A DNA stretch of 42,780 bases from a virus. Lineage: Duplodnaviria; Caudoviricetes. The stretch is taken from IMG/VR virus record IMGVR_UViG_3300038393_001787, positions 1 through 42,780 of that record; one strand, 5' to 3'. The notes under the pieces are model-generated. The model was not told the DNA's origin. It did not search any database and was given only the letters and a program-made list of their open reading frames with translations. The position numbers and the translations under genes are program-made. Below, piece by piece: positions 1-42,780 of this stretch (its first letter is position 1; every line of letters begins with the position of its first letter).

Positions 1-132
1 TTTGAGCGCGGCGCGCACGGCCGCGCGCAAGCCGATCGGCTCCGGGGAATCAATCTCGCCGGCGTGCTCGAATTTGAGACGGTCGCCGACGAGGAGATCC
101 GATCAATCATTTTAGCGAGGCTACGTCCATGA
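1..132 (+). CDS. 3' part of hypothetical protein (variant copy of 42331-42618)
   Basis: Reads FERGAHGRAQADRLRGINLAGVLEFETVADEEIRSIILARLRP*; stop overlaps the next start (ATGA). Confidence 0.7.
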   Translation, partial: FERGAHGRAQADRLRGINLAGVLEFETVADEEIRSIILARLRP

Positions 133-294
133 CCAACGAAACAGCAACGAGCCAGGTCGAACGCGCGTGCGAGCTCCGCCGGCGCGATCGCCTGGCCCAC
201 CTTTGGGCCGACATGGCAGTCGCAATGGCGATGGAGGAAATGCGCAAGGACAACGTCGATCCCGACCGTCGGCCGCTGCGCTTCGCGGCCGACG
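1..294. repeat. Terminal direct repeat, left copy (imperfect match to 42487-42780)
   Basis: Manual alignment: 294 bp with 9 mismatches (positions 14,16,22,24,25,42,48,49,167). Confidence 0.95.
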
Positions 295-461
295 TCGCCA
301 CGTTGGCGACAACGATCCTAATCGACAAGCTCATCAACGACGATCAGGCGATCGCCACGCTGCGCGCGCAGATGGAGGAGTATAAACGTCAGCTCGACCA
401 GGTGCTCCGGATCGTGCCGCCGAGCATCCAGATCAAGACTATAACAGGGGATCCGCTATGA
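129..461 (+). CDS. Hypothetical protein (110 aa, C-terminal coiled coil)
   Basis: ATGA coupling at both ends; normal composition. Confidence 0.75.
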   Translation: MTNETATSQVERACELRRRDRLAHLWADMAVAMAMEEMRKDNVDPDRRPLRFAADVATLATTILIDKLINDDQAIATLRAQMEEYKRQLDQVLRIVPPSIQIKTITGDPL

Positions 462-1036
462 AGATCGGTTACGCACGTGTGAGCTCGAGCGGCCAATCGC
501 TCGAGATCCAGCTCGAGGCGCTAAAGGCCGCCGACTGCGGCAAGATCTACCGCGAGAAGGAAAGCGCCAGGTCGACGACGAACCGCCTCGAGCTCGATCG
601 AGCGCTCGAGGATCTTCGACCAGGCGACGAGCTCGTTGTGACCAGGCTCGACCGCCTCGCCCGATCGGTCGCGGATCTCTATGCGATCTTGGCACGGATC
701 GACCAGGCCGGCGCGAGCTTCTCTTGTCTGCACCAGGCCGGGATCGATACCAGCTCGGCAACCGGCAAGATGCTGCTCGGGATGCTCGGCGTTATCGCCG
801 AGTTTGAGAACGAGCTGCGGCGCGAGCGCCAGCGCGAGGGGATCCAGAACGCCAAGGAACGCGGCGTCTATCGCCGGGCCAAGACCAGGCGCATTGATCC
901 GGCGATCGTGCGCGCGGCCGTGAAGGAGCACGGCGGCGCCACGGCCGCCGCCAGGGCGCTCGGAATCGGCCGCGCCTCCGTTTACCGGATCCTCGGGCCG
1001 GAGCTCGCTGGCGAGCTTCCAGCGGAGGGCGTGTAA
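458..1036 (+). CDS. Small serine recombinase (resolvase/invertase family) with C-terminal HTH
   Basis: MKIGYARVSS catalytic motif, GDELVVTRLDRLARS, AEFE..R.ERQREGI, C-terminal AAARALGIGRASVYR HTH; 192 aa, so not a large serine integrase. Confidence 0.95.
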   Translation: MKIGYARVSSSGQSLEIQLEALKAADCGKIYREKESARSTTNRLELDRALEDLRPGDELVVTRLDRLARSVADLYAILARIDQAGASFSCLHQAGIDTSSATGKMLLGMLGVIAEFENELRRERQREGIQNAKERGVYRRAKTRRIDPAIVRAAVKEHGGATAAARALGIGRASVYRILGPELAGELPAEGV

Positions 1037-1037
1037 C

Positions 1038-1238
1038 ATGACGCTGACAGCAGCTATCCGAGGATATCTCGAGAGAACCAACTCGCGCCGTGTAACGTGC
1101 CAGGAGCTCGCCGCCGGCGTCGCCAACCAACTCGGCCACACCCCAAGCCTCATGGCCGTTTCGAGGATCATGGGCGGTGAGCCCGGTTGGAACAAGGTAC
1201 AGCTTGCCGGCAAAGTCGGCTTTGAGAAGGAGCACTAA
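1038..1238 (+). CDS. Small hypothetical protein (66 aa), possible winged-helix DNA-binding protein
   Basis: GGAGG SD upstream; VTCQELAAGVA...PSLMAVSRIM helix pattern; start codon overlaps the CGTGTAACATG palindrome. The DNA-binding role is inference. Confidence 0.65.
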   Translation: MTLTAAIRGYLERTNSRRVTCQELAAGVANQLGHTPSLMAVSRIMGGEPGWNKVQLAGKVGFEKEH

Positions 1239-1242
1239 TCAA

Positions 1243-1755
1243 ATGATGAGTCAGTGGCACGTCACGGCCGAAGCCAACGAGCAGGAGATCGAGCTCACGA
1301 TCTACCGAACGGATGATCCGGGTCCGATGAAGGAATGGAAGCCAGCGCAAACCATTTTACTCGACCAGGCTCACGCGACGGAGCTCCTCGGGACGTTGGC
1401 GATCGCGGTCCACAAACTACAGGAGAACGGGATCTCGGCCGCGGCCGTCCACGCAGGATTACGCGACGCGATCGAGAAGGAGGCCGACGTCGGAATGGCC
1501 TACTCGATCGCGCAGACCTTCTCCGACAACGTGAACGAGCTGGTCAACGCGCTCGCCGATCGCAAGGACGCGAGCGTTGCGACGTCGCTCCTGGCGCGGG
1601 CGCTCACGGCTCGAGCCTTGCTCCTGGTCGCCGGCGATTGGTGGGCGAGCATGGGGAGCGGGCCAGGGCCGGCCTATCACGCGGCGCTGCGATCGTTCAT
1701 CGACCAGGCGCCGGCGGGCTATGCCGACCGATCGGCGCTCAAGGGCGCGGGTTGA
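1243..1755 (+). CDS. Hypothetical protein (MMSQWHVTAEANEQ...), last gene of the early operon
   Basis: Start reassigned to ATG 1243/1246 behind AAGGAGCACTAATCA. Confidence 0.75.
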   Translation: MMSQWHVTAEANEQEIELTIYRTDDPGPMKEWKPAQTILLDQAHATELLGTLAIAVHKLQENGISAAAVHAGLRDAIEKEADVGMAYSIAQTFSDNVNELVNALADRKDASVATSLLARALTARALLLVAGDWWASMGSGPGPAYHAALRSFIDQAPAGYADRSALKGAG

Positions 1756-1780
1756 TCGTTAACGTGTTGGAGAGTATATC
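1752..1780 (+). promoter_or_regulatory. Putative sigma70-type promoter for the small RNA
   Basis: TTGATC (1752-1757), 17-bp spacer, TATATC (1775-1780); predicted start near G1787. Confidence 0.6.
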
Positions 1781-1786
1781 GGCCCC

Positions 1787-1878
1787 GCTCTGTGCCGGAT
1801 CTGATTAGTGCTCCAACGCTAAACTGACCGTAGAGCGCGGGCCGTCCTCGGGAAACCAAGGGCGGCCCGTTTGCATTT
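1787..1878 (+). ncRNA. Candidate trans-acting small RNA with anti-RBS seed (UGAUUAGUGCUCCAACGC)
   Basis: 5' GCTCTGTG pairs with CGTAGAGC; inner stem TTAGTG/CGCTAA presents loop CTCCAA; terminator follows; seed is complementary to seven early-operon sites. Confidence 0.65.
1837..1878 (+). terminator. Intrinsic terminator
   Basis: GCGGGCCGTCC-TCGGGAAACCAA-GGGCGGCCCGT stem followed by TTGCATTT. Confidence 0.7.
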
Positions 1879-6399: not shown

Positions 6400-6648
6400 T
6401 CATAATGCGAGCGCCTGTTGAGCGGGCGCCGCCACAACCGTTCCCCCGTCGGGGCGCGGATAGAAATCATTGGGCTCGACTCCGACCAGGCGCTCGAGCT
6501 CGAGCATCCAGGCCGGCTTCGGGATCTTCCCCTTGCTCTCCCAACCGTGCCAGGTCGCGCGGTCGACGGGCTTGCCGTCAACGACGATCTTTGCGCCGGC
6601 CTCTTCCATCGTCAGGCCGTGCGCGACGCGGAAAGCTTTGAGCTTCAT
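6400..6648 (-). CDS. Cro-like XRE HTH regulator
   Basis: MKLKAFRVAHGLTMEEAG...DRATWHGWESKGKIP...VEPNDFY; first gene of the replication operon; alternative start 6666. Confidence 0.8.
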   Translation of the reverse strand: MKLKAFRVAHGLTMEEAGAKIVVDGKPVDRATWHGWESKGKIPKPAWMLELERLVGVEPNDFYPRPDGGTVVAAPAQQALAL

Positions 6649-6668
6649 TTGGGCGATCGTTCCCATGC

Positions 6669-6767: not shown

Positions 6768-6959
6768 ATGCAGGAACCAACACACGCGCCAGGCTGGCGC
6801 GGTAGGCCGCGACGCTTCGGCCCAATCCATGACGATTCGCCGCCGCGCTCGTGCCTCGAGCTGGTCCTCTATGCCGTCTGCTATTCGATCGGCGCCGGAA
6901 CGCTGGCGATCGGCGTGCTCGCCTGGACGGCCGATCTCTTCGCCGGGCATATCCGATGA
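6768..6959 (+). CDS. Small membrane protein
   Basis: GAGGGGGG SD; hydrophobic C-terminal segment; ATGA-coupled to the next gene. Confidence 0.6.
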   Translation: MQEPTHAPGWRGRPRRFGPIHDDSPPRSCLELVLYAVCYSIGAGTLAIGVLAWTADLFAGHIR

Positions 6960-7240
6960 TCGGCGCCGCGCTCGAGGATCTCGACCTAAGCGCCGTGCTC
7001 GCGGCCTTCCGCGACCAGGAAGCCCACGGCCACACCGCCGAAACCGACGCGGAGCGCAAGCTCGAATGCTTCGGCAACGATCTGCTCGAGCGGTCGGCCG
7101 AGCTGCGCGACGTTATTCGCCCAGGCGATCGGCTCAATCTCAACGTTGGATATCGGCGCGCGGCCAGGCTGGCGGCCTACGCGATCGCGACCATGCGCCG
7201 GATCCGCATCGAACGGGACCAACAGAAGGAGTGTTTATGA
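6956..7240 (+). CDS. Hypothetical protein (MIGAALEDLDLSAVL...)
   Basis: ATGA overlaps at both ends. Confidence 0.7.
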   Translation: MIGAALEDLDLSAVLAAFRDQEAHGHTAETDAERKLECFGNDLLERSAELRDVIRPGDRLNLNVGYRRAARLAAYAIATMRRIRIERDQQKECL

Positions 7241-7527
7241 CTGACCAGGACGACGGCGATCCATGCACCGACGGCACTCATTGCTGTTGTTGTCTCGATG
7301 CAGGGGACAAGTGTTGTGATTGCGGCGAGGTTCCGGTGCGCGCGTCGGAGGTGCTCGCCTTCATCGATTTCTATGCTGGCCAGGAGAACGAGGCGGAGGA
7401 GGTTCGCGACTTCGTTCAACTTGCCGCTCGCGGAGTTGCAGAAGGTAAGACCCGCCGAGAGTTTGCCGCGGTCCATCAACTCGCCGCCTTTGTTATTTGG
7501 TCCGAAGAAAGGATCCCCGCCCGATGA
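7237..7527 (+). CDS. Hypothetical protein with Cys-rich N-terminus
   Basis: AAGGAG SD; CTDGTHCCCCLDAGDKCCDC. Confidence 0.7.
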   Translation: MTDQDDGDPCTDGTHCCCCLDAGDKCCDCGEVPVRASEVLAFIDFYAGQENEAEEVRDFVQLAARGVAEGKTRREFAAVHQLAAFVIWSEERIPAR

Positions 7528-8099
7528 ACGGCGAGCTGTTCTCCATCGCCGACGCGGCCGCCTTCATCGGCGCGATCGACCAGGATCTCGCCGATTGCGC
7601 CGCCGCCCATGTCGACCAGGTGCGCAAGGGGCGGCTCACCCAACACGAAGCCGATTATGTCGTCGGCGTGCTGCGCGATATCCGTTCCGATCTCGTCCAT
7701 GCCTTCGGCCCGCTCGACGTCGGCGCCTGTCTCGAGCGCGAGGAAGCGGCGGTGCGCTGGCGCGCCAAGGTCCGCTGGATCAATGGCGAGCTCGAGGCGC
7801 GGCGCAGCTCCTACCCCGAGCTCGTCGCCAAGGGCCGCCTCGAGGAGCGCGCCGCCAAGCGTAAGCTCGCCATGCTGCGCACGCTTCATCGCCTATACTG
7901 GCGCGAGCTGTTCATGTGGGAGCCCGACCCTGGGCCGGCGCTCGAGTTCCTGCTCGCGATCCGCAAGCGCAAGGATGCGACGGCGGACGAGATCGATCGG
8001 CTCATTCCGCGCGGGCGCCAGATCTACCGCGAGCTCGTGCGCAAGCACGTCGCAGCGGTCGAGCTCGAGGATGGCGGACAGATGGAGCTGGTCGCGTGA
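7524..8099 (+). CDS. Hypothetical protein (MNGELFSIADAA...)
   Basis: ATGA overlap; two similar internal segments (QVRKGRLTQHEA / ELVAKGRLEERAA). Confidence 0.75.
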   Translation: MNGELFSIADAAAFIGAIDQDLADCAAAHVDQVRKGRLTQHEADYVVGVLRDIRSDLVHAFGPLDVGACLEREEAAVRWRAKVRWINGELEARRSSYPELVAKGRLEERAAKRKLAMLRTLHRLYWRELFMWEPDPGPALEFLLAIRKRKDATADEIDRLIPRGRQIYRELVRKHVAAVELEDGGQMELVA

Positions 8100-8299
8100 G
8101 CGGCCTTAATCCGGGAGGATCCCGCAACAGCAACGGGCAGCGCCGCGTGTTCACCGCTTCGGAGGTTCAGCGCGTTTGCCGCCAGGCGAAGATTGCCGAA
8201 GTCGACAAACCGAGCGGCAGCATCGCCGCTATGCCGCACAGCAACAGCCGCGAGGTTCAACGACGGTTGCGCCAGGCGGCGAAGCGGGAGCGGTCCTAA
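8096..8299 (+). CDS. Small basic hypothetical protein
   Basis: GTGA start overlap with GGAG SD; TAATG overlap with the next gene. Confidence 0.55.
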   Translation: MSGLNPGGSRNSNGQRRVFTASEVQRVCRQAKIAEVDKPSGSIAAMPHSNSREVQRRLRQAAKRERS

Positions 8300-8496
8300 T
8301 GCCGACATATCGGGCGCGGCGCTTCCGCGAAGCGAACCGCCGATCGCCGGTCGTTTACGGCAGCGTGATCGGCGAAGGCGGCAAGGGCTGTTTTTACCGC
8401 CTCGCCGATGAGCAAACGTTCGAGCTTAACGCCGAAGAGTGCCGCGCGATCGGCCATCCGCGTTGGGCTTTCGAGGAGGAATGCTGTAGCGTGTAA
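8299..8496 (+). CDS. Small hypothetical protein (MPTYRARRFRE...)
   Basis: TAATG coupling, GGGAG SD. Confidence 0.6.
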   Translation: MPTYRARRFREANRRSPVVYGSVIGEGGKGCFYRLADEQTFELNAEECRAIGHPRWAFEEECCSV

Positions 8497-8531
8497 CACG
8501 GGCGCCGACGGGCGGCCCGATCGGGGGGAAT

Positions 8532-8891
8532 GTGTACGCCTATGTGAAGTTTCCGCGGAGCTGCGAGGTATGCGGTCAATCGCTCGGCAGCGAAAGCGAC
8601 GTGCTCGAAATCGGCGATCTGCGCCTGGTCCGTTCCGAGCACAGCATTACCTGGAAGGGCCGCCCGGTTCCGCTGACGCCGCATGAATATGGGATCGTCG
8701 AGCTGCTGGCGATGCGGCCCGGCAAGGTGATCCGCAAGGACACGTTCTACATGCTCTTGCTCGGCACCGACGGGGATCCAAAGCGGCTCGACGTCCATGT
8801 CTGCCGAGTGCGCGCCAAGTTTCGGGCAATCGATCCAGCGTTCAACCGGATCCGAGCGGTCCCCTGTTGCGGCCTGACCTGGCGAAACTAG
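8532..8891 (+). CDS. Stand-alone OmpR/PhoB-type winged-helix DNA-binding protein with N-terminal CxxC and no receiver domain
   Basis: LTPHEYGIVELLAMRPGKVIRK...LDVHVCRVRAKFRAIDPAFNRI fits the trans_reg_C pattern; GTG start behind GGGGGG. Confidence 0.82.
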   Translation: MYAYVKFPRSCEVCGQSLGSESDVLEIGDLRLVRSEHSITWKGRPVPLTPHEYGIVELLAMRPGKVIRKDTFYMLLLGTDGDPKRLDVHVCRVRAKFRAIDPAFNRIRAVPCCGLTWRN

Positions 8892-9030
8892 GGAACAGCC
8901 GTTGACGATCGGCGTTGTCGATCGCGGGCGCTAATCGGTTTGGTTTCCTAGAGCAGAGGCACAGGCCCGATTTGCGCCCAATCCTCGCCGGCGAGCTCGG
9001 CGCCGGCACTTCAGGCAGGAGAGCCGCAAC

Positions 9031-9252
9031 ATGGCCGAACAAAACAAGAGCGCGTTTTTCGATCAAGCGACGGTCGACCAATGGGATGCCCGCGAAACCG
9101 GCCAGGCCGCGCGCGCGGTGCTCGCCAAGATCGGGCGGATGAACCGCACCAACGGTAACACTGAGCAGATTAGAACCGCGCTCGAGGGAGATCCCGACGC
9201 GATCAACGGGCTTGAGCATTTGCGCGAGCTGCTCCGCGCGCCAACTCGTTAA
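9031..9252 (+). CDS. Small hypothetical protein (73 aa)
   Basis: CAGGAG SD; preceded by a structured ~140-nt spacer. Confidence 0.65.
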   Translation: MAEQNKSAFFDQATVDQWDARETGQAARAVLAKIGRMNRTNGNTEQIRTALEGDPDAINGLEHLRELLRAPTR

Positions 9253-28407: not shown

Positions 28408-29046
28408 TTAGCCGTGCGCCGGATCCGCCGGGATCACGATCTCCCAATCTTCGGCGAGCACGTCGGTCTGACTTGCGAGCCAGGGAACGACGTTTTCCTG
28501 CGCCGTTTTCATCGCGATATAGGCGCCGTAAGGGACAAGTGCGTCCTCGCCCCAATAAGCCTTTGCTGCTCCCGTCTGAGCGGGATAGCTGTTAGCCGGG
28601 ACCAGGTATAGGAACATGCCCTTGCCGTTCCATCCTGCTCGATGGATGCGATTGCCGAGCTTCAGCGCCACCAGCGCGTCGCTGAAGCTCATATTGGCCT
28701 CAACCGTCCGATAGGTGCGCTCGAACACGTCCGCCGGCGACCAGGACACGTAACCGGAGAAGCCCTCGACGTTCGGCTTGCCGCCATCGGTATATTCGAC
28801 CAGGTAGCCCGCTTCGGTTGGATCCTCATCCGCCGGCATCTGCCAGCCCCTGAAAGCGTTGTAGGCGCCGCGGGTCATCGGCCCGCCAAACAGCGTCTTG
28901 GTCCCCTGGTAAAGGATCATATCGGGCAATTGCAGCTTCGCTGATTCCTCGCCGAGCTCGAGCACGTCGGGCGCGAAATCGGGCTGAGCTTCAACCGTGC
29001 CGACCGCTTCGCCTTCCTCGGTAATTGCATGTGCGTTATCGTCCAT
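28408..29046 (-). CDS. DUF2829/Tad2-like nucleotide-sponge domain fused to an N-terminal GYxSWSPxxxFE domain
   Basis: C-terminal MSFSDAL.ALK.G..I.R.GWNGKGMF...PWLASQTDVLAEDW is the DUF2829 pattern; start ATG 29046 behind AAGGAGG. Confidence 0.8.
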   Translation of the reverse strand: MDDNAHAITEEGEAVGTVEAQPDFAPDVLELGEESAKLQLPDMILYQGTKTLFGGPMTRGAYNAFRGWQMPADEDPTEAGYLVEYTDGGKPNVEGFSGYVSWSPADVFERTYRTVEANMSFSDALVALKLGNRIHRAGWNGKGMFLYLVPANSYPAQTGAAKAYWGEDALVPYGAYIAMKTAQENVVPWLASQTDVLAEDWEIVIPADPAHG

Positions 29047-29160
29047 TTGTCCCTCCTTGCGTTGAAAAATGCGGGCCGCTGGCTGAGCCACTCAAGGCGC
29101 CGCCCAATGACGGCGCGCCGGGAGCCTCGCGAGCTGTACCGGACGGCCCTGGGTATCTCG

Positions 29161-35930: not shown

Positions 35931-36173
35931 TCAGTCAATGCCGAGCGCCTGGCGATAAGTTTCGAGCAGCGCGTCGGCTTCCTGGCGAGCGTTCGCGTCC
36001 ATTCCCCGAAGCTGGATAATCCGCCTCATGGTCTTGGTATCGTATCCGCGCGACTTCGCCTCGCCGTAAACGTCGCGAATGTCGTCGGCGATGCCTTTGC
36101 GCTCCTCGTGCATCCGCTCGACACGCTCGATCAGGAGCCGGAGCTCGTCGGCCGCAACGCTTCCTTCAGCCAT
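35931..36173 (-). CDS. gapR: GapR/DUF2312 nucleoid-associated protein homologue
   Basis: AADELRLLIERVER..EE.K.IADDIRDVY.EAKSRGYD.K.MR.II.LR...R.E..ALLETY..ALG is the family signature. Confidence 0.92.
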   Translation of the reverse strand: MAEGSVAADELRLLIERVERMHEERKGIADDIRDVYGEAKSRGYDTKTMRRIIQLRGMDANARQEADALLETYRQALGID

Positions 36174-37717: not shown

Positions 37718-37980
37718 TGTTCCACTGTTCCCAAATTTGTTCCCAACGAAATCGGGCTTCAGGAACAACCTTTGCACATCAATTCAATGACTTATTAGAA
37801 TTGTTCCATTGTTCCCAAAGAAACGCAAAGCCCTACATGTGCGCGCGCAAGCGTATTCACGCGCGCGTATGACCCGCGCGCGCGAGTCGCTGGGAACATG
37901 GGAACAATCGGCCTAAGCCTCTGATTTCGTTGGATTAGTGCGTTCCTACGGGTGGGAACAGCGTTGGGAACATGGGAACA
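37718..37980. repeat. Symmetric TGTTCC(CA)/(TG)GGAACA iteron array, putative replication origin
   Basis: Forward copies at 37718,37726,37738,37802,37810; reverse copies at 37891,37899,37953,37965,37973; one opposed copy per arm (37762, 37941); central CGCGCG tracts. Confidence 0.75.
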
Positions 37981-38300
37981 AATCCCCCGCCCATTTGAAG
38001 CCGGCAATCTGGCCTGTTTCATGCTTGAAGGCAATGGGCTCGGGCGAGGGCGAGGGAGAAGGAGGCGCGGAGGAGCTCGAGCGGTCGCTACGGGCGCGGG
38101 CCAGGAGATCGATCGGAGCGGCCGCTTAAGCGCGGCCGCGCTTTGATTTTATTGGAGATCTCGCCGCGGGCGAGATCAATCGGAGATCGCTTGCACGAGC
38201 TCGAGGCGACCGCTGCGCGCTCGCCGAGCTCGGCCGCGATCGCGCCAGGCGCCGCGCTCCTGGTCAACGGATTGTTGCGCGAACGACACGCAAGCCGAGT

Positions 38301-38346
38301 GTGTCTCGCATGGTGTCTTGCAATGTGTCTCGTCTTGCTGTACGCC
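38301..38346 (+). promoter_or_regulatory. Putative early promoter overlapped by three 12-bp-period direct repeats
   Basis: TTGCAA (38318-38323), 17 bp, TACGCC (38341-38346); GTGTCTYG at 38301, 38313, 38325. Confidence 0.55.
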
Positions 38347-38384
38347 TCACGGCGTTGGAGCACTAGCAGACAGGAGCACGGAAG

Positions 38385-38519
38385 ATGATTGACCGAAGCG
38401 CAACCGCCCAGGCACTCGCAAAAGCGATCGCGTACAAGCAATGCGGCAAAGACCAGGACGCGAAAGAGTGGGCCGCTAAGCTGGTCCGCATCCTCGAGTG
38501 CGCGGACATTCTGAAATGA
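38385..38519 (+). CDS. Small early protein (44 aa, MIDRSATAQALAKAIAYKQCG...)
   Basis: Translated by hand; CAGGAGCAC RBS; ATGA-coupled to the next gene. Confidence 0.65.
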   Translation: MIDRSATAQALAKAIAYKQCGKDQDAKEWAAKLVRILECADILK

Positions 38520-38671
38520 GCCGCCCGATCGACCAGGAGCGCCAGGCGCTCGAGCTCGAGCTGCGCGCGAAGTCGCCGAAGCGCGGCGAGCCTGGGCGAG
38601 CGCCGGCGGCCCAGGCCGACGCGGCCCACCTTCCCCTTTTCATCGCGGCCAACGAGCCGAAACTGTTTTGA
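38516..38671 (+). CDS. Small early protein (51 aa, MSRPIDQERQALEL...LPLF...KLF)
   Basis: Translated by hand; ATGA overlap. Confidence 0.55.
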   Translation: MSRPIDQERQALELELRAKSPKRGEPGRAPAAQADAAHLPLFIAANEPKLF

Positions 38672-38685
38672 GAGGAGCACTAGCC

Positions 38686-39147
38686 ATGAATAACACAACC
38701 GACACCGCCGCCGAGCTCGCCAACGTCGCGACCTGGCGCCAGGTCGCCGCCGAGCTCGAGCTCACGATCGACGACGCGACGCAATGGGCGACCATCTACC
38801 GCGACGGCCGCCCGATCGCGACGGCGCAACGCCGGCGCGTGCTCGATCGCACGTCGCCGGATTGGCAAATCTTCGGCCTCGACGGGCGCCGGATCTTCGC
38901 GCTCTACTTCGGCGGCCAGGATCCAGCGGCCAGGATACGCAAGCGCCTCGCCGCGTACCTGGTCGACCAGGCGCCGGCGCCGGCGCCGGCCAAGCTCGAC
39001 GAGATCCAGGAGCTCGAGGCGCGCCGGCGCCAGCTCCTGGCCGACCGCCTTATGACCAACGGGCACGGGCGCCGGGCGCGGATCCAGGAGCAGATTGACG
39101 CGATCGACGCCAAGCTCGAGCTCCTGGCCGAGCAAGCCGGCGCCTAG
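38686..39147 (+). CDS. Hypothetical early protein (MNNTTDTAAELA...)
   Basis: GAGGAGCACTA RBS before ATG 38686. Confidence 0.75.
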   Translation: MNNTTDTAAELANVATWRQVAAELELTIDDATQWATIYRDGRPIATAQRRRVLDRTSPDWQIFGLDGRRIFALYFGGQDPAARIRKRLAAYLVDQAPAPAPAKLDEIQELEARRRQLLADRLMTNGHGRRARIQEQIDAIDAKLELLAEQAGA

Positions 39148-39201
39148 CGGTCGCGACCTGGCGGCCGCGCCTGGCGCGACCGCCTAGCCGCAATCGTGCG
39201 G
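39147..39201 (+). repeat. Intergenic hairpin repeat, copy A
   Basis: GCGGTCGCG-ACCT-GGCGG...CCGCC-TAGC-CGCAATCGT-GCGG. Confidence 0.7.
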
Positions 39202-39221
39202 GAATTGTTGGAGCACAGAAC

Positions 39222-40001
39222 ATGAGCACACGAGCAACCTACCTAGTCAACGGGACGCCGTTCTACATTCACACCGACGGTTATCCGGAGGGCGCGGCCG
39301 AGTATTTCCGGCAGATGATCGGCGCGCTTACCGCGCCGGCGGCCGACGGCCTGGCCGTTGGCGCGATCGCCGATCGGCGTGGCGGCCTGGTGCACGCTTT
39401 CATCCGTGGCAACGATCGCGCCGAGCCGACCGAAAGCCACCAGGCGCACGGTGACACGAAATATCGTTGGGACGTCGACGATCGGCGGCCAGAGGCCAAA
39501 GGCGAGATCCTGGTCCGTTGCCAGGCGCGCCGGTACGACTTCGACGGATGGGGCGCCTGGTCGACCTGGGCGCCGATCGAGGAGCTGATCGGCCGCCACT
39601 ATCCCGGCGCCATCGTCGCGATCGTCGACCCCGATCGCTACATGGGCGGCCGAAAGATCCTGGCGACGATCGGCAACGCCCTGGCGATCGCCCGGCGCGA
39701 GCTCGAGATTGCCGGCGCCTTCCAGGACGGTAACCCCCCGAACAAGCCGGGACACCAGGCGCTCGCGACGGCCTGGCTCCGCGGCGTGATCGAACAGCTC
39801 CCGGCGCGCGTCTCTTTCCTCGAGAAGCAAGCGGCCGCGTGCCGGGCCGAGCTAGCCAAGGGGTCGACCTGGGGCCGGGATTACTACGAGCGCGAGCTCG
39901 CCGAGATAGAGGAGGAGCTCGAGGAGCTCCGGGAGCCGCTTCCCGATAACGTCGACGTCGACCAGGCGCCCGAGCAGCTCGGCCTAGCGATCGCGAACTA
40001 A
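39222..40001 (+). CDS. Hypothetical early protein, MSTRA...Y.H.DGYP type
   Basis: GTTGGAGCAC RBS; N-terminal MSTRATY...FYIHTDGYPEG motif. Confidence 0.8.
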   Translation: MSTRATYLVNGTPFYIHTDGYPEGAAEYFRQMIGALTAPAADGLAVGAIADRRGGLVHAFIRGNDRAEPTESHQAHGDTKYRWDVDDRRPEAKGEILVRCQARRYDFDGWGAWSTWAPIEELIGRHYPGAIVAIVDPDRYMGGRKILATIGNALAIARRELEIAGAFQDGNPPNKPGHQALATAWLRGVIEQLPARVSFLEKQAAACRAELAKGSTWGRDYYERELAEIEEELEELREPLPDNVDVDQAPEQLGLAIAN

Positions 40002-40059
40002 CTCTCACGACCTGGCGGGCGCCGTGTAACATGGCACCCGCCTAGCCGCGAGAGAGCGG
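40002..40059 (+). repeat. Intergenic hairpin repeat, copy B
   Basis: CTCTCACG-ACCT-GGCGG...CCGCC-TAGC-CGCGAGAG-A-GCGG. Confidence 0.7.
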
Positions 40060-40080
40060 AAAACAGTTGGAGCACTACAC

Positions 40081-40314
40081 ATGAAACACGACCCTTTGAA
40101 TTTCGGCCGAGCTCGCCCTTGGCAGTCGGAGGCAACCCGTCGCCAGCAGCACCAGGCGCGCCAGGCGGCGATCGCCGCCCTGGTCTTTGCGATCGCGTGC
40201 GCCGCGGCGATGCACGTCGCCATGAACCACGGCAGCGCCGGCGGCGCGCTCCTCTTCTCGCTCGGCGGATCGCTCGCGCTAATGTTCGTTGCGTTCGCGG
40301 CTTCGGAGGCATGA
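40081..40314 (+). CDS. Small two-TM membrane protein
   Basis: GTTGGAGCACTA RBS; two hydrophobic helices. Confidence 0.7.
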   Translation: MKHDPLNFGRARPWQSEATRRQQHQARQAAIAALVFAIACAAAMHVAMNHGSAGGALLFSLGGSLALMFVAFAASEA

Positions 40315-40850
40315 TGCGCTTCGCCAAACGCCCTCGCTATCCGTTCACCTGGTCGCAGCGAAAGGCGGCCGCCGTGCTCGTGAGCCAGCGTAAGGCGCGC
40401 GAGCGGCTACCGTTGTTCGCCGACGCGATCGCGGCCGAACAACCCGACGTCGACCAGGTGCGCGACGATCGCGAGCTCCGTTGGATTGCGCGCGAGCTCG
40501 AGCAGCGGAGCAAGGAGGCGGCCAAATGGCGCAAGACCAGGCGCGAGATCGACGCGCTCGAGCCGCCGGCGCGCCGGCTGTTCCTCGACTACTGGAACGG
40601 ACATAGCAAATCTCCAGGCAACGCCGGCTATCTCGCAACCGTCCTTCACATGTTCAAAACCGGGCGCCTGGTCGAGCACAACGGTAAGCTCGAGTCCCCG
40701 CATTGGATTGCGCACGATCGGCGCCTCGAGGCGAAGCTCCGCGACATGAGCGACCAGGAGCTCGACAGTACCATTCAAAGCCATGTGAACATGCATTTCG
40801 TCGAGCTCGGCCGAGCCGAGAAGCGGCGCCGTTGGGAGCAGCAACTATGA
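40311..40850 (+). CDS. Hypothetical protein (RERLPLFADAIAAEQP type)
   Basis: GGAGG SD, ATGA overlaps at both ends. Confidence 0.75.
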   Translation: MMRFAKRPRYPFTWSQRKAAAVLVSQRKARERLPLFADAIAAEQPDVDQVRDDRELRWIARELEQRSKEAAKWRKTRREIDALEPPARRLFLDYWNGHSKSPGNAGYLATVLHMFKTGRLVEHNGKLESPHWIAHDRRLEAKLRDMSDQELDSTIQSHVNMHFVELGRAEKRRRWEQQL

Positions 40851-41224
40851 CCGTGTTACATGGCCCGCCGGAAACGGGCCGCGGAGCGCCTCGAGGGGAT
40901 CCGGCGGAGCATGTTGGCCGCAAATGCCCGGAGTGCCTGGGCGCGGTCGATACGTCGCTAGACTGGCGCAAGATGTTTTGTTGCGAGAAGCACCGCCAGG
41001 CGTTCCACAATCGCCAGCTCATCCGCGGCCGCAAGCTCGTTGTCTTGTGCATGGCGGAGCGCGTGACCCGCTCCGGCTATTGCCGACGCAAGCAAACCGG
41101 GATCGAGGCGCGCCAGCGATCGCGGCGGCTCATGGACGCCTGGCACAAGGAGGACATGGCCGCCGGGCGCATGGCAATGGACGAATATCTCGCGATCAGG
41201 ACGCGGCTCGGCTTCCAGGATTGA
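40847..41224 (+). CDS. Zinc-finger-containing basic protein
   Basis: CPEC...FCCEKH; ATGA overlap; palindrome CCGTGTTACATGG just after the start codon. Confidence 0.7.
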   Translation: MTVLHGPPETGRGAPRGDPAEHVGRKCPECLGAVDTSLDWRKMFCCEKHRQAFHNRQLIRGRKLVVLCMAERVTRSGYCRRKQTGIEARQRSRRLMDAWHKEDMAAGRMAMDEYLAIRTRLGFQD

Positions 41225-41225
41225 A

Positions 41226-41277
41226 CTGTCACGAGCTGGCGAGCCGGTGCGATCGGCTCGCCTACCCGCGACAGCGG
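41226..41277 (+). repeat. Intergenic hairpin repeat, copy C
   Basis: CTGTCACG-AGCT-GGCGAGCCG...CGGCTCGCC-TACC-CGCGACAG-CGG. Confidence 0.7.
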
Positions 41278-41298
41278 ACCACAGAAGGAGCACAATCA

Positions 41299-41736
41299 AT
41301 GCCGAAGCTATACCACAACGGCCAGCTCGAGGGCTGGCAGATCCCAGGCCAACAGGATCCGAAGGCGAGCCGCGTCCACGTGCCGAGCTCGCCGGCGGAT
41401 CTCGCCGCCTGGCTCAACCATCGTCGCGTAGGACCGACCGGAGCCGCGGCCGAGCAAGAACGACGGCTCGAGGAGTTTGACGACGCGCCAAGCGTCGACG
41501 AGCTGCTCGAGGCGGCCGATCGCGCCGAGCGCCAGCGCCCCAAGGTCGCCGGCGTTTGCGACTCGTGCGGCCGCTCGGCCGCCGGCGCGCTGAAGCTGGC
41601 CCAGGGGAACGAGCTCGACGCGATCGAGCAGTGGATGGAAACCGCCGAGCTATGGGCGATCCAGCAGCTCGTCGAGCGCGCCCGCTCAGTCGTTCGCGCC
41701 CGCGGCGAGGCACTAGACGGAAAGGGCATTCAATGA
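41299..41736 (+). CDS. Hypothetical early protein (MPKLYHNGQLEGWQ...), contains CxxC
   Basis: AAGGAGCACAATCA RBS before ATG 41299. Confidence 0.75.
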   Translation: MPKLYHNGQLEGWQIPGQQDPKASRVHVPSSPADLAAWLNHRRVGPTGAAAEQERRLEEFDDAPSVDELLEAADRAERQRPKVAGVCDSCGRSAAGALKLAQGNELDAIEQWMETAELWAIQQLVERARSVVRARGEALDGKGIQ

Positions 41737-42215
41737 ACCGCACCGTCATTGTCGCGTGCAGCGCGACCAAGCGCACCGACACCGCCGAGCTTTCCGCGCT
41801 GGCCCGTTACGACGGGCCGGCCTGGCGCACGTTGCGGACGCACCTTAGCTGCATGATCGAGCCGCCGCTCGCCTTGTCGGCCGAGCACGGCCTGATTTCC
41901 GCCTACCAGGAGATCCCCAACTATGACCGGCGGCTCGATCGGCCGCGCGCGTGCGCACTCGTGCCTTTCGTCGCCAAGCAGCTCGAGCGCTTCGCCTACG
42001 AGGGCCGGCTCCGCGGCGAGATCTTCGCCTACGGCGGCGAGATCTATCGCGAGCTGCTCGAGGCGGCCGCGGAGCTGGCCGAGCACGAGCTCGGCCGCAA
42101 GCTCCTGCTCACTTACTCGAGCGGCGGCATTGGCGAGCAGCTCGGCCAGCTTAAAGCCTTCCTGACCAGGGCGCCCGTCATGGTGCCCGCGATCGTCGAC
42201 GAGGAGCTCGCATGA
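41733..42215 (+). CDS. DUF6884/YaaA-like protein
   Basis: IVACSATK...A..RYDGP.W, LSAEHGLI...I.NYD, GGEIY, GGIGEQL motifs. Confidence 0.7.
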   Translation: MNRTVIVACSATKRTDTAELSALARYDGPAWRTLRTHLSCMIEPPLALSAEHGLISAYQEIPNYDRRLDRPRACALVPFVAKQLERFAYEGRLRGEIFAYGGEIYRELLEAAAELAEHELGRKLLLTYSSGGIGEQLGQLKAFLTRAPVMVPAIVDEELA

Positions 42216-42334
42216 TGAGGACTTTCCTGGAAGCTTGGCGTCGACTTGATACTTTCGAGAAGACCCTCGGCGCTTTCATGCTTGCGGCGTTCGCCGGCGC
42301 AATGATCGCGGTCGCGTGGAGGATCGCGCGATGA
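42212..42334 (+). CDS. Small membrane protein (40 aa, MMRTFLEAWRRL...)
   Basis: Translated by hand; GAGGAG SD; ATGA overlaps at both ends. Confidence 0.6.
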   Translation: MMRTFLEAWRRLDTFEKTLGAFMLAAFAGAMIAVAWRIAR

Positions 42335-42618
42335 GGAAGATCCTAGTTTGCTGCACCAGCGCGCGCGATCGCGATTATTGGATCAGCCGCGCGGTGGACG
42401 ACGGCGGCAAGTTCGTGCCGCCCTCCGCGAGCCGCGGCCCCCAGGTAATCTTCGCGCGGCTCGAGCTCGAGCTAATGTTCCTGGTCTTTGAGCGCGGCGT
42501 GAACGGCAGATCGCAAGCCGATCGGCTTCGGGGGCTCAATCTCGCCGGCGTGCTCGAATTTGAGACGGTCGCCGACGAGGAGATCCGATCAATCATTTTA
42601 GCGAGGCTACGTCCATGA
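42331..42618 (+). CDS. Hypothetical protein (MRKILVCCTSAR...)
   Basis: GGAGG SD, ATGA overlaps; its 3' half lies in the terminal repeat. Confidence 0.7.
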   Translation: MRKILVCCTSARDRDYWISRAVDDGGKFVPPSASRGPQVIFARLELELMFLVFERGVNGRSQADRLRGLNLAGVLEFETVADEEIRSIILARLRP

Positions 42619-42780
42619 CCAACGAAACAGCAACGAGCCAGGTCGAACGCGCATGCGAGCTCCGCCGGCGCGATCGCCTGGCCCACCTTTGGGCCGACAT
42701 GGCAGTCGCAATGGCGATGGAGGAAATGCGCAAGGACAACGTCGATCCCGACCGTCGGCCGCTGCGCTTCGCGGCCGACG
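42487..42780. repeat. Terminal direct repeat, right copy
   Basis: TTTGAGCGCGGC...GCGGCCGACG matches 1-294; implies a circular or terminally redundant unit of about 42,486 bp. Confidence 0.95.

Follow-up and report, generated by a model that had tools for sequence, protein, structure and literature searches.

A predicted phage small RNA complementary to the repeated ribosome-binding tag of an operon, and its co-variation with that tag in related genomes

Introduction

The C4 RNA of P1/P7 is described as a phage-encoded, trans-acting antisense RNA that controls its own operon through short pairings (PMC8198154). The CI RNA of P4 is processed from the transcript that it controls and pairs with two sites, seqA and seqC, causing premature termination (PMC4825925), and the P22 sar, lambda OOP and aQ RNAs are phage antisense RNAs that lower the translation or stability of phage mRNAs, acting on a single gene each (PMC12197685). 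Among alphaproteobacterial RNAs, MmgR/suhB (RF00519) and AbcR1/2 are anti-Shine-Dalgarno sRNAs whose hairpin-displayed motifs address the ribosome-binding sites of many mRNAs (PMC7143759). Cluster K mycobacteriophages carry the SAS, a private extended ribosome-binding tag found in one orientation on non-structural genes (PMC3203893, PMC11373665), whose function was still called unknown in 2024 (PMC11373665). A single reverse SAS occurs in four K1 phages, and that report leaves open whether its partner is RNA or protein (PMC3203893).

The window analysed here is a stretch of 42,780 nucleotides from a tailed phage (Caudoviricetes; IMG/VR virus record IMGVR_UViG_3300038393_001787). From its sequence, the segment 1787-1878 is likely to be a phage-encoded small RNA that acts in trans as an antisense RNA. 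A sequence-only reading had proposed that this one RNA pairs with the ribosome-binding tag shared by an operon; complementarity, synteny and co-variation uphold that core, whereas three of the seven sites proved weak.

Like C4, the window RNA is predicted to be a phage-encoded trans-acting antisense RNA that addresses its own operon by short pairings. However, the target of C4 is icd-ant, the operon in which it is itself encoded, and its part there is to support the C1 protein repressor (PMC8198154), whereas the window RNA has seven sites spread over 5 kb for its one seed and a predicted promoter of its own beyond the end of the operon. The window RNA follows the last gene rather than heading an icd-ant operon, neither icd nor an antirepressor was matched among the operon genes, and no Rfam family matched the window at E up to 1 and none was significant in 1700-2200. 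With P4 CI RNA it would share RNA-only control by pairing with its own transcript, including at a site near the 5' end (PMC4825925), but the window sites overlap the ribosome-binding sites of six genes, Rfam gave no match, and, where the P4 RNA is leader-processed with targets on both sides, all seven window targets lie upstream of the RNA, 0.6-6 kb away on the circle. It differs from sar, OOP and aQ in being encoded away from its targets and matching many, and from MmgR/suhB in having no CU-rich motif, no RF00519 match at E up to 10, and a seed that reads a private tag of phage genes. Judged from sequence, the window RNA would thus work like C4, CI RNA, sar and the multi-target anti-Shine-Dalgarno sRNAs, yet it falls outside their defining features. 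In the literature covered (titles and abstract openings, with most subscription papers outside this scope), no paper describes one phage RNA that pairs with a repeated ribosome-binding tag of its own operon.

The genome and its tagged operon

The window contains the entire genome of the phage, a circle of 42,486 bp; positions 1-294 are repeated at 42487-42780 with 9 differences. Two further soil runs contain pieces identical to it. Family matches reveal a module of podovirus-type morphogenesis genes, a DUF7146/Toprim primase and its helicase-like partner, and a small serine resolvase; among the late-strand genes they pick out a Tad2-like anti-defence domain (28408-29091) and a GapR-like DNA-binding protein (35931-36173). 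The window ORFs scanned include no integrase except the small resolvase, no partition gene, no plasmid Rep and no CI, and the absence of integrase, partition and CI genes fits a lytic role. Because helicase relatives at 35-45% identity sit in Sphingomonadales and other alphaproteobacterial assemblies, the host is presumably alphaproteobacterial. No cultured close relative was found among 50,697 phage records, the best match having 38-42% identity. Before the small terminase gene lies an A/T-rich region with repeated GGGAAC/GTTCCC (37720-37990), present in relatives too, which is a candidate replication origin or packaging site.

The tagged operon comprises 15 genes on the + strand, from 38385 across the circle junction to 1755, and its promoter, small unknown genes, gene content and orientation make it likely to be early:

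38318..38346, + strand: predicted operon promoter (TTGCAA, 17 nt, TACGCC) with GTCTCG operator-like motifs; spacing kept in 5/5 genomes
38385..42618, + strand: operon genes 1-11, mostly without family matches, one with DUF6884
129..1755, + strand: operon genes 12-15, across the circle junction, including the small serine resolvase (458-1036)

Translation starts in this operon fall into three kinds: 6/15 genes carry the tag, 8/15 overlap the upstream stop by ATGA, and the remaining one follows its upstream stop after a 1-nt gap. All nine untagged genes are therefore coupled to upstream stops, as the sequence-only reading had held for nearly all of them.

A structured unit downstream of the operon

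A promoter-like, hairpin and terminator-like unit had been claimed at 1752-1878, and I find it there as described, with TTGATC and TATATC 17 nt apart, two hairpins and the loop CTCCAA:

1752..1780, + strand: predicted sigma-70-type promoter of the RNA (TTGATC, 17 nt, TATATC); sequence and spacing kept in relatives
1787..1836, + strand: 5' hairpin (50 nt, by fold prediction) of the predicted ~92-nt RNA; syntenic hairpins in the relatives G001-G004
1802..1819, + strand: seed (anti-tag), with the open loop CTCCAA at 1811-1816 and the remainder in the apical stem
1837..1878, + strand: terminator-like hairpin with an interrupted U-tail, which would also end the upstream operon transcript

Segment 1787-1878 folds into these two hairpins with z = -4.53, and 0/200 shuffles were equally stable. 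A consensus scanner called neither promoter nor terminator for the window unit, and the units of the relatives finish in longer T runs than that of the window. A 347-nt contig from an independent soil run spans 1690-2036 with zero differences to the window, which rules out an assembly artefact. Neither a single-protein locus search nor a scan of viral contigs for the exact 18-nt seed gave a result. The RNA presumably has a promoter of its own, used by host RNA polymerase, and transcripts of the operon presumably also run on into the unit; there is no terminator between the last operon gene, which ends at 1755, and the hairpin.

Between the RNA and the end of the helicase gene, a conserved non-coding block (1940-2110) with a C-run, a G-run and a long hairpin is also present in G001 and G002; it has no Rfam match and is a candidate origin or terminator element.

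Complementarity between seed and tag

Seven seed-complementary sites had been listed, and all are present at those coordinates and lengths (net pairing energies include opening costs):

38352..38365, + strand: target 1, 14 nt, 5 nt past the predicted -10 box and upstream of the first ribosome-binding site; the strongest, net -11.8 kcal/mol
38373..38379, + strand: target 2, 7 nt, ribosome-binding site of gene 38385; weak alone, net -1.6 kcal/mol
38674..38682, + strand: target 3, 9 nt, gene 38686; weak, net -1.5 kcal/mol
39207..39216, + strand: target 4, 10 nt, gene 39222; net -4.5 kcal/mol
40066..40077, + strand: target 5, 12 nt, gene 40081; net -8.9 kcal/mol
41287..41298, + strand: target 6, 7 nt (41287-41293) plus 5 over one bulge, gene 41299; 7-nt core net -2.0 kcal/mol
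1229..1241, + strand: target 7, 13 nt, gene 1243; net -7.8 kcal/mol

Over the exact stretch, the sites at 38373, 38674 and 41287 thus reach only -1.5 to -2.0 kcal/mol and the other four -4.5 to -11.8, while co-folding of the whole hairpin with the targets gives -4.1 to -20.0 kcal/mol. Six of the seven sites overlap GGAG and the spacer, the forward tag copies stand at a fixed distance to the AUG, and different targets match differing sub-stretches of the 18-nt seed. On the + strand GGAGCAC occurs 11 times (the seven sites, one copy inside the resolvase gene at 925, and three antisense to - strand genes), and on the - strand twice, at 402 and, in the hairpin, at 1808.

I ranked exact complementarity to the hairpin across 58 hand-curated gene starts, 15 from the operon and 43 others, some of the latter possibly misplaced. 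The six tagged genes take ranks 1-6 with 7-14 nt, and the best of the 43 non-operon starts has 6 nt. A matrix built from the seven targets alone, themselves selected by the core motif, has the hairpin as its best opposite-orientation match in the genome, at 20.0 bits with the next at 11.4, and 0/100 Markov-4 genomes attain that score; of 21 opposite-strand GAGCAC cores, the one in the hairpin has flanks far better than any other. A loose 9-mer test across the genome (22-nt windows and machine-called starts, in the window, G001 and G003) did not single out the RNA and was dominated by GC-rich coding repeats. Duplex energy alone ranked the starts poorly and did not cleanly separate the tagged ones. 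As a motif, GGAGCAC before ATG is uncommon in hosts of the Sphingomonadales type, since five such genomes (3.9-6.4 Mb) hold just 33, 35, 21, 65 and 17 copies.

A fortuitous complement to a strong ribosome-binding sequence spread by local duplication might be suspected, given that the leaders are clearly duplicated and that the loose tests do not single out the RNA. Against this stand the Markov genomes, none of which attains the window score, and the three different seeds that, in the genomes described below, match their own tags at one syntenic position; chance is so improbable on this evidence as to be largely refuted.

Synteny and co-variation in relatives

Helicase-anchored searches yielded 196 loci, and the 15 closest helicase homologs (64-77% identity) were left out of the DNA comparison. 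The resolvase-bearing operon, whole or in part, is present in six other records (G001-G005 and L054), and a scan for the leader pattern across 102 loci, mostly unrelated, later added one new clade member, the truncated G007 (L339). A 26-row tree of the helicase unites the window with G001-G005 and L054 in one clade (97/94), within which G001-G003 are a subclade.

The structured unit is kept at the syntenic position in G001-G004, which are complete or partial phage genomes, with fold z of -4.80, -2.36, -4.89 and -3.20. A TTG-N20-TA spacing lies 4-9 nt before the first stem in 5/5 genomes (chance 0.0006-0.001 per position, where each RNA was taken to start at its first stem base, a choice made in knowledge of the promoter). 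Tag and seed change together. The window state is GGAGCACTA versus TAGTGCTCC, that of G001-G003 is GAGCACCGATCA versus TGATCGGTGCTC, and that of G004 is GAGCAACCA versus TGGTTGCTC. In G001, G002 and G003, GGAGCACCGATCA occurs at 5, 7 and 6 operon sites and the syntenic hairpin-terminator unit contains TTTGATCGGTGCTC; G004 has GAGCAACCA-type tags and, directly after the resolvase gene and a few bases past its stop, a hairpin with TTGGTTGCTC. The three tag/seed states represent two changes, because G001-G003 are one clade with one tag.

Mean longest matches to the cognate versus the other seed classes are 10.3 versus 6.0-6.9 in the window, 12.3-12.7 versus 5.5-6.0 in G001-G003 and 8.3 versus 5.0-5.6 in G004, and for 30/31 tags the own seed class is the best match. 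At the orthologue of gene 41299 (target 6), the tag state changes at one homologous site across G001-G004, and at 8616 in G003 a C to T change in a tag keeps pairing through a G-U wobble. Matrices built from targets only rank the hairpin first on the opposite strand in 4/4 genomes (window and G001-G003), with Markov nulls of 0/100 for G001, 79/100 for G002, which fails, and 1/100 for G003; in G004, where targets were selected once the seed was known, the hairpin is second of 38,047 positions and the null of 29/60 is not significant. Five tags in relatives are without GGAG and lie a short way ahead of the actual ribosome-binding site (29919 in G001, 5655 in G002, 4995 in G003, 1123 and 1698 in G004), so the tags are not a mere Shine-Dalgarno preference. 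The predicted open loop in G001-G003 spans just the 3' end of the tag, and aligning the four RNAs as DNA gave too poor a result for base pairs to be counted.

The co-variation of seed and tag that the sequence-only reading had looked to in related phages is thus borne out, with the unit in place and three states, and no tagged member of the clade was found to lack the complementary hairpin, G007 carrying a tag variant on a record that stops before the RNA position and so cannot be judged. L054 has a cut-down operon with neither tags nor hairpin. From these sequences, the tag-plus-antisense system is real, conserved and co-evolving.

In G005 the operon genes share no uniform tag. Of the two hairpins at the syntenic position, one is stable (z = -3.81) and the other is not (z = -0.22). 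Both (L005:12690-12945, - strand) have loops complementary to GGGGTGGT, a motif at the ribosome-binding sites of several replication and late genes, including the helicase gene. As a fourth tag/seed pair this motif was rejected, since reverse copies lie in or before replication genes.

Two side observations concern the relatives. In a related rhizosphere phage contig, the site orthologous to target 6 (window 41259-41619) is in the other tag state. The 3' half of the syntenic RNA of G004 scores 44.6 bits on RF00519 (cut-off 41 bits), so that this unit (L002:12964-13075, - strand) appears as a tag-reading hairpin fused to a suhB/MmgR module, a possible link to host anti-Shine-Dalgarno sRNAs.

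Pairing could also act in another way, the hairpin forming the 3' terminus of the operon mRNA (in cis or once processed) or the duplex leading to termination or RNase cleavage. The run without a terminator from the last gene into the hairpin speaks for this, as does the start of the G004 hairpin so close to the resolvase stop; moreover, the strongest window site is at the predicted 5' end of the transcript, before any ribosome-binding site, as for P4 CI RNA with its premature termination (PMC4825925). However, a separate promoter spacing is kept in 5/5 genomes and 6/7 window sites overlap GGAG and the spacer, and I consider this alternative improbable.

Co-variation of an inverted copy is likewise predicted if a phage protein binds the tag as an asymmetric site on DNA, similar to a stoperator, with the hairpin copy an inverted site and the changes reflecting altered protein specificity. 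The asymmetric 13-bp stoperators of L5 are a precedent (PMC3203893), and the phage encodes Cro-like and winged-helix proteins. Yet the single inverted copy sits, in 5/5 genomes, in the apical arm of a stable hairpin within a non-coding unit bounded by promoter and terminator, and the fixed distance of the forward copies to the AUG and the differing sub-stretches of the seed that window targets match also argue against a DNA site. G001-G003 differ from the window in their tags, yet their Cro-like proteins share 80-89% identity with that of the window; separate operator-like motifs exist. A DNA site is quite improbable on balance. A further candidate, an RNA-guided DNA-binding protein (TnpB/TldR-like), was considered, and no such protein matched in family scans.

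Leaders and protein regulators

Further elements that could act on the operon are the leader stem-loops and two regulator genes:

39148..39202, + strand: leader stem-loop before target 4, a putative RNase III processing site and a member of an 11-copy family
40002..40059, + strand: leader stem-loop before target 5, z = -3.66
41226..41277, + strand: leader stem-loop before target 6, z = -2.44
6400..6666, - strand: Cro-like XRE HTH gene, 88 aa, with no CI-like gene found divergent from it
8532..8891, + strand: CtrA-like winged-helix gene, stand-alone, with an N-terminal CxxC

The first leader family counts 11 copies in 5 genomes, including the three window leaders, and the second 5 copies in relatives; in each the fold is shared while paired bases vary, and a long, irregular stem is followed by a small alternative hairpin. 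The RNase III sites in the early leaders of T7 are stems, long and irregular, that enclose a conserved internal loop. Both families recall these sites and are, by analogy, candidate cleavage sites.

GTCTCG lies in the spacer of the operon promoter in 5/5 genomes. GTGTCT/GTCTCG motifs are repeated over this promoter in the window (38295-38335), and G001-G003 have a GTCTC..GAGAC inverted repeat around the operon -10 box. A second + strand gene cluster (6768-9252) is divergent from the Cro-like gene and ends with the CtrA-like gene. The palindrome CRTGTWACAYG occurs in the window at 1032, 5670, 8492, 9263, 40025 and 40854, and also in G001-G004 and L339; counts of its 7-nt core are 6 (window), 18 (G001), 10 (G002), 10 (G003), 2 (G004) and 0 (G005). 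In G001-G003 it directly precedes the -35 box of the operon, and several leader hairpins have it at their tip; it is a candidate operator or nucleoid-protein site.

None of the 11 ORFs divergent from cro in five clade loci matched a repressor, in a scan that covered 24/39 listed ORFs of at least 90 aa; outside the clade, two of four loci (L058 and L127) have a repressor divergent from cro and L146 and L134 gave no match. The earlier remark that no CI protein is seen in the genome therefore holds for the usual place of CI in the clade, but Cro-like HTH and winged-helix genes are present. Because the genome has HTH regulators and operator-like motifs at the operon promoter, the RNA is probably not the sole control.

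Proposed mode of action

That pairing controls the tagged operon in some form is very probable. It is an evenly balanced proposition that the RNA does so by blocking translation of the tagged regulon, shutting off early genes as a group once infection is under way. The seed-loop of 6 nt would nucleate pairing on the tag and the apical stem would then open, after which the duplex would cover GGAG and the spacer up to the AUG and block the ribosome; coupled genes would be silenced along with their tagged leader gene. If the leader stem-loops are RNase III sites that cut the long mRNA into pieces, each piece would need its own tag. A stable RNA that builds up would slow host-takeover genes after a delay. 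A host-type promoter would, however, be active as soon as infection begins, and this fits poorly with a timed shut-off.

Alternatively, pairing may serve as the repressor of a plasmid-like carrier state and of superinfection immunity, with the RNA in place of CI and the tag/seed variants defining immunity groups. A host-type promoter, kept in 5/5 genomes, and diversifying seeds favour immunity, diversifying specificity being typical of immunity systems, and the small serine resolvase, the circular ends and the want of a repressor divergent from cro in the five clade loci (L058 and L127, outside the clade, have one) point the same way. Distant helicase homologs (27-29% identity) lie on 39-41 kb Phaeobacter and Leisingera records filed as plasmids, the G005 hairpins mirror the ribosome-binding motif before the G005 helicase gene, and P4 CI RNA and P1 C4 RNA are precedents. 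Nevertheless, the replication, cro and late genes of the window are untagged (best 6 nt), so that the RNA alone would not restrain lytic replication, and no partition or plasmid Rep gene was recognised in the window. The repressor pattern is itself blurred by L146 and L134, which lie outside the clade and also have no repressor match (24/39 listed ORFs scanned), and a scan of bacterial genomes yielded no clade member. I regard a carrier state as rather unlikely; shut-off is preferred over immunity because of the untagged replication, cro and late genes and because no partition or integrase gene was recognised.

Cluster K and other tagged phages

The likeness of the window system to the SAS is one of arrangement only: the 13-bp SAS consensus GGGATAGGAGCCC is not found at the window tags, which read GGAGCAC with other flanks, and the two differ in having unrelated sequence and hosts of different phyla, with no co-variation in cluster K. 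In Adephagia, the single reverse SAS (58682-58694; L256:28783-28795) is a hairpin loop between genes 92 and 93, the interval in which late transcription is reported to begin (PMC11373665), and this hairpin sits in a non-coding region (~300 nt) that is conserved in cluster K phages (169 records). The anti-SAS loop is kept in 5/14 cluster K phages (Adephagia, Anaya, Angelica, LastHope and Amelie) and altered in Amgine, Bryler and Shandong1, with the SAS unchanged in the two checked; it is absent from the ~300 nt examined in Yuna, Keshu and Pharb and from the 50 kb examined in TM4, Pixie and TribleTrouble. Cluster K was accordingly rejected as proof of generality, given 5/14 and no co-variation, and kept as a lead.

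Repeated private ribosome-binding tags without a complement in the DNA examined were seen in L179 (10 sites), L229 (5) and L335 (3), and a tag-plus-complement detector applied to loci of at least 5 kb flagged the distant L028, L032, L070, L086, L093, L148, L149 and L151.

Implications

Known phage antisense RNAs address one gene or two nearby sites each, and one RNA addressing a tagged regulon would amount to a new layer of phage gene control, with the natural tag/seed pairs as ready-made orthogonal translational repressors. A broader reading, tentative and somewhat doubtful, is that a lineage that has lost CI and integrase runs a whole operon by an RNA address system, that the co-switching of tag and seed defines immunity or shut-off groups through RNA, and that the same logic applies to start-associated tags of other phages, such as the SAS of K1 mycobacteriophages. 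The system also offers a concrete hypothesis about the cluster K SAS and directs attention to one place in Adephagia, the loop of the hairpin that separates genes 92 and 93.
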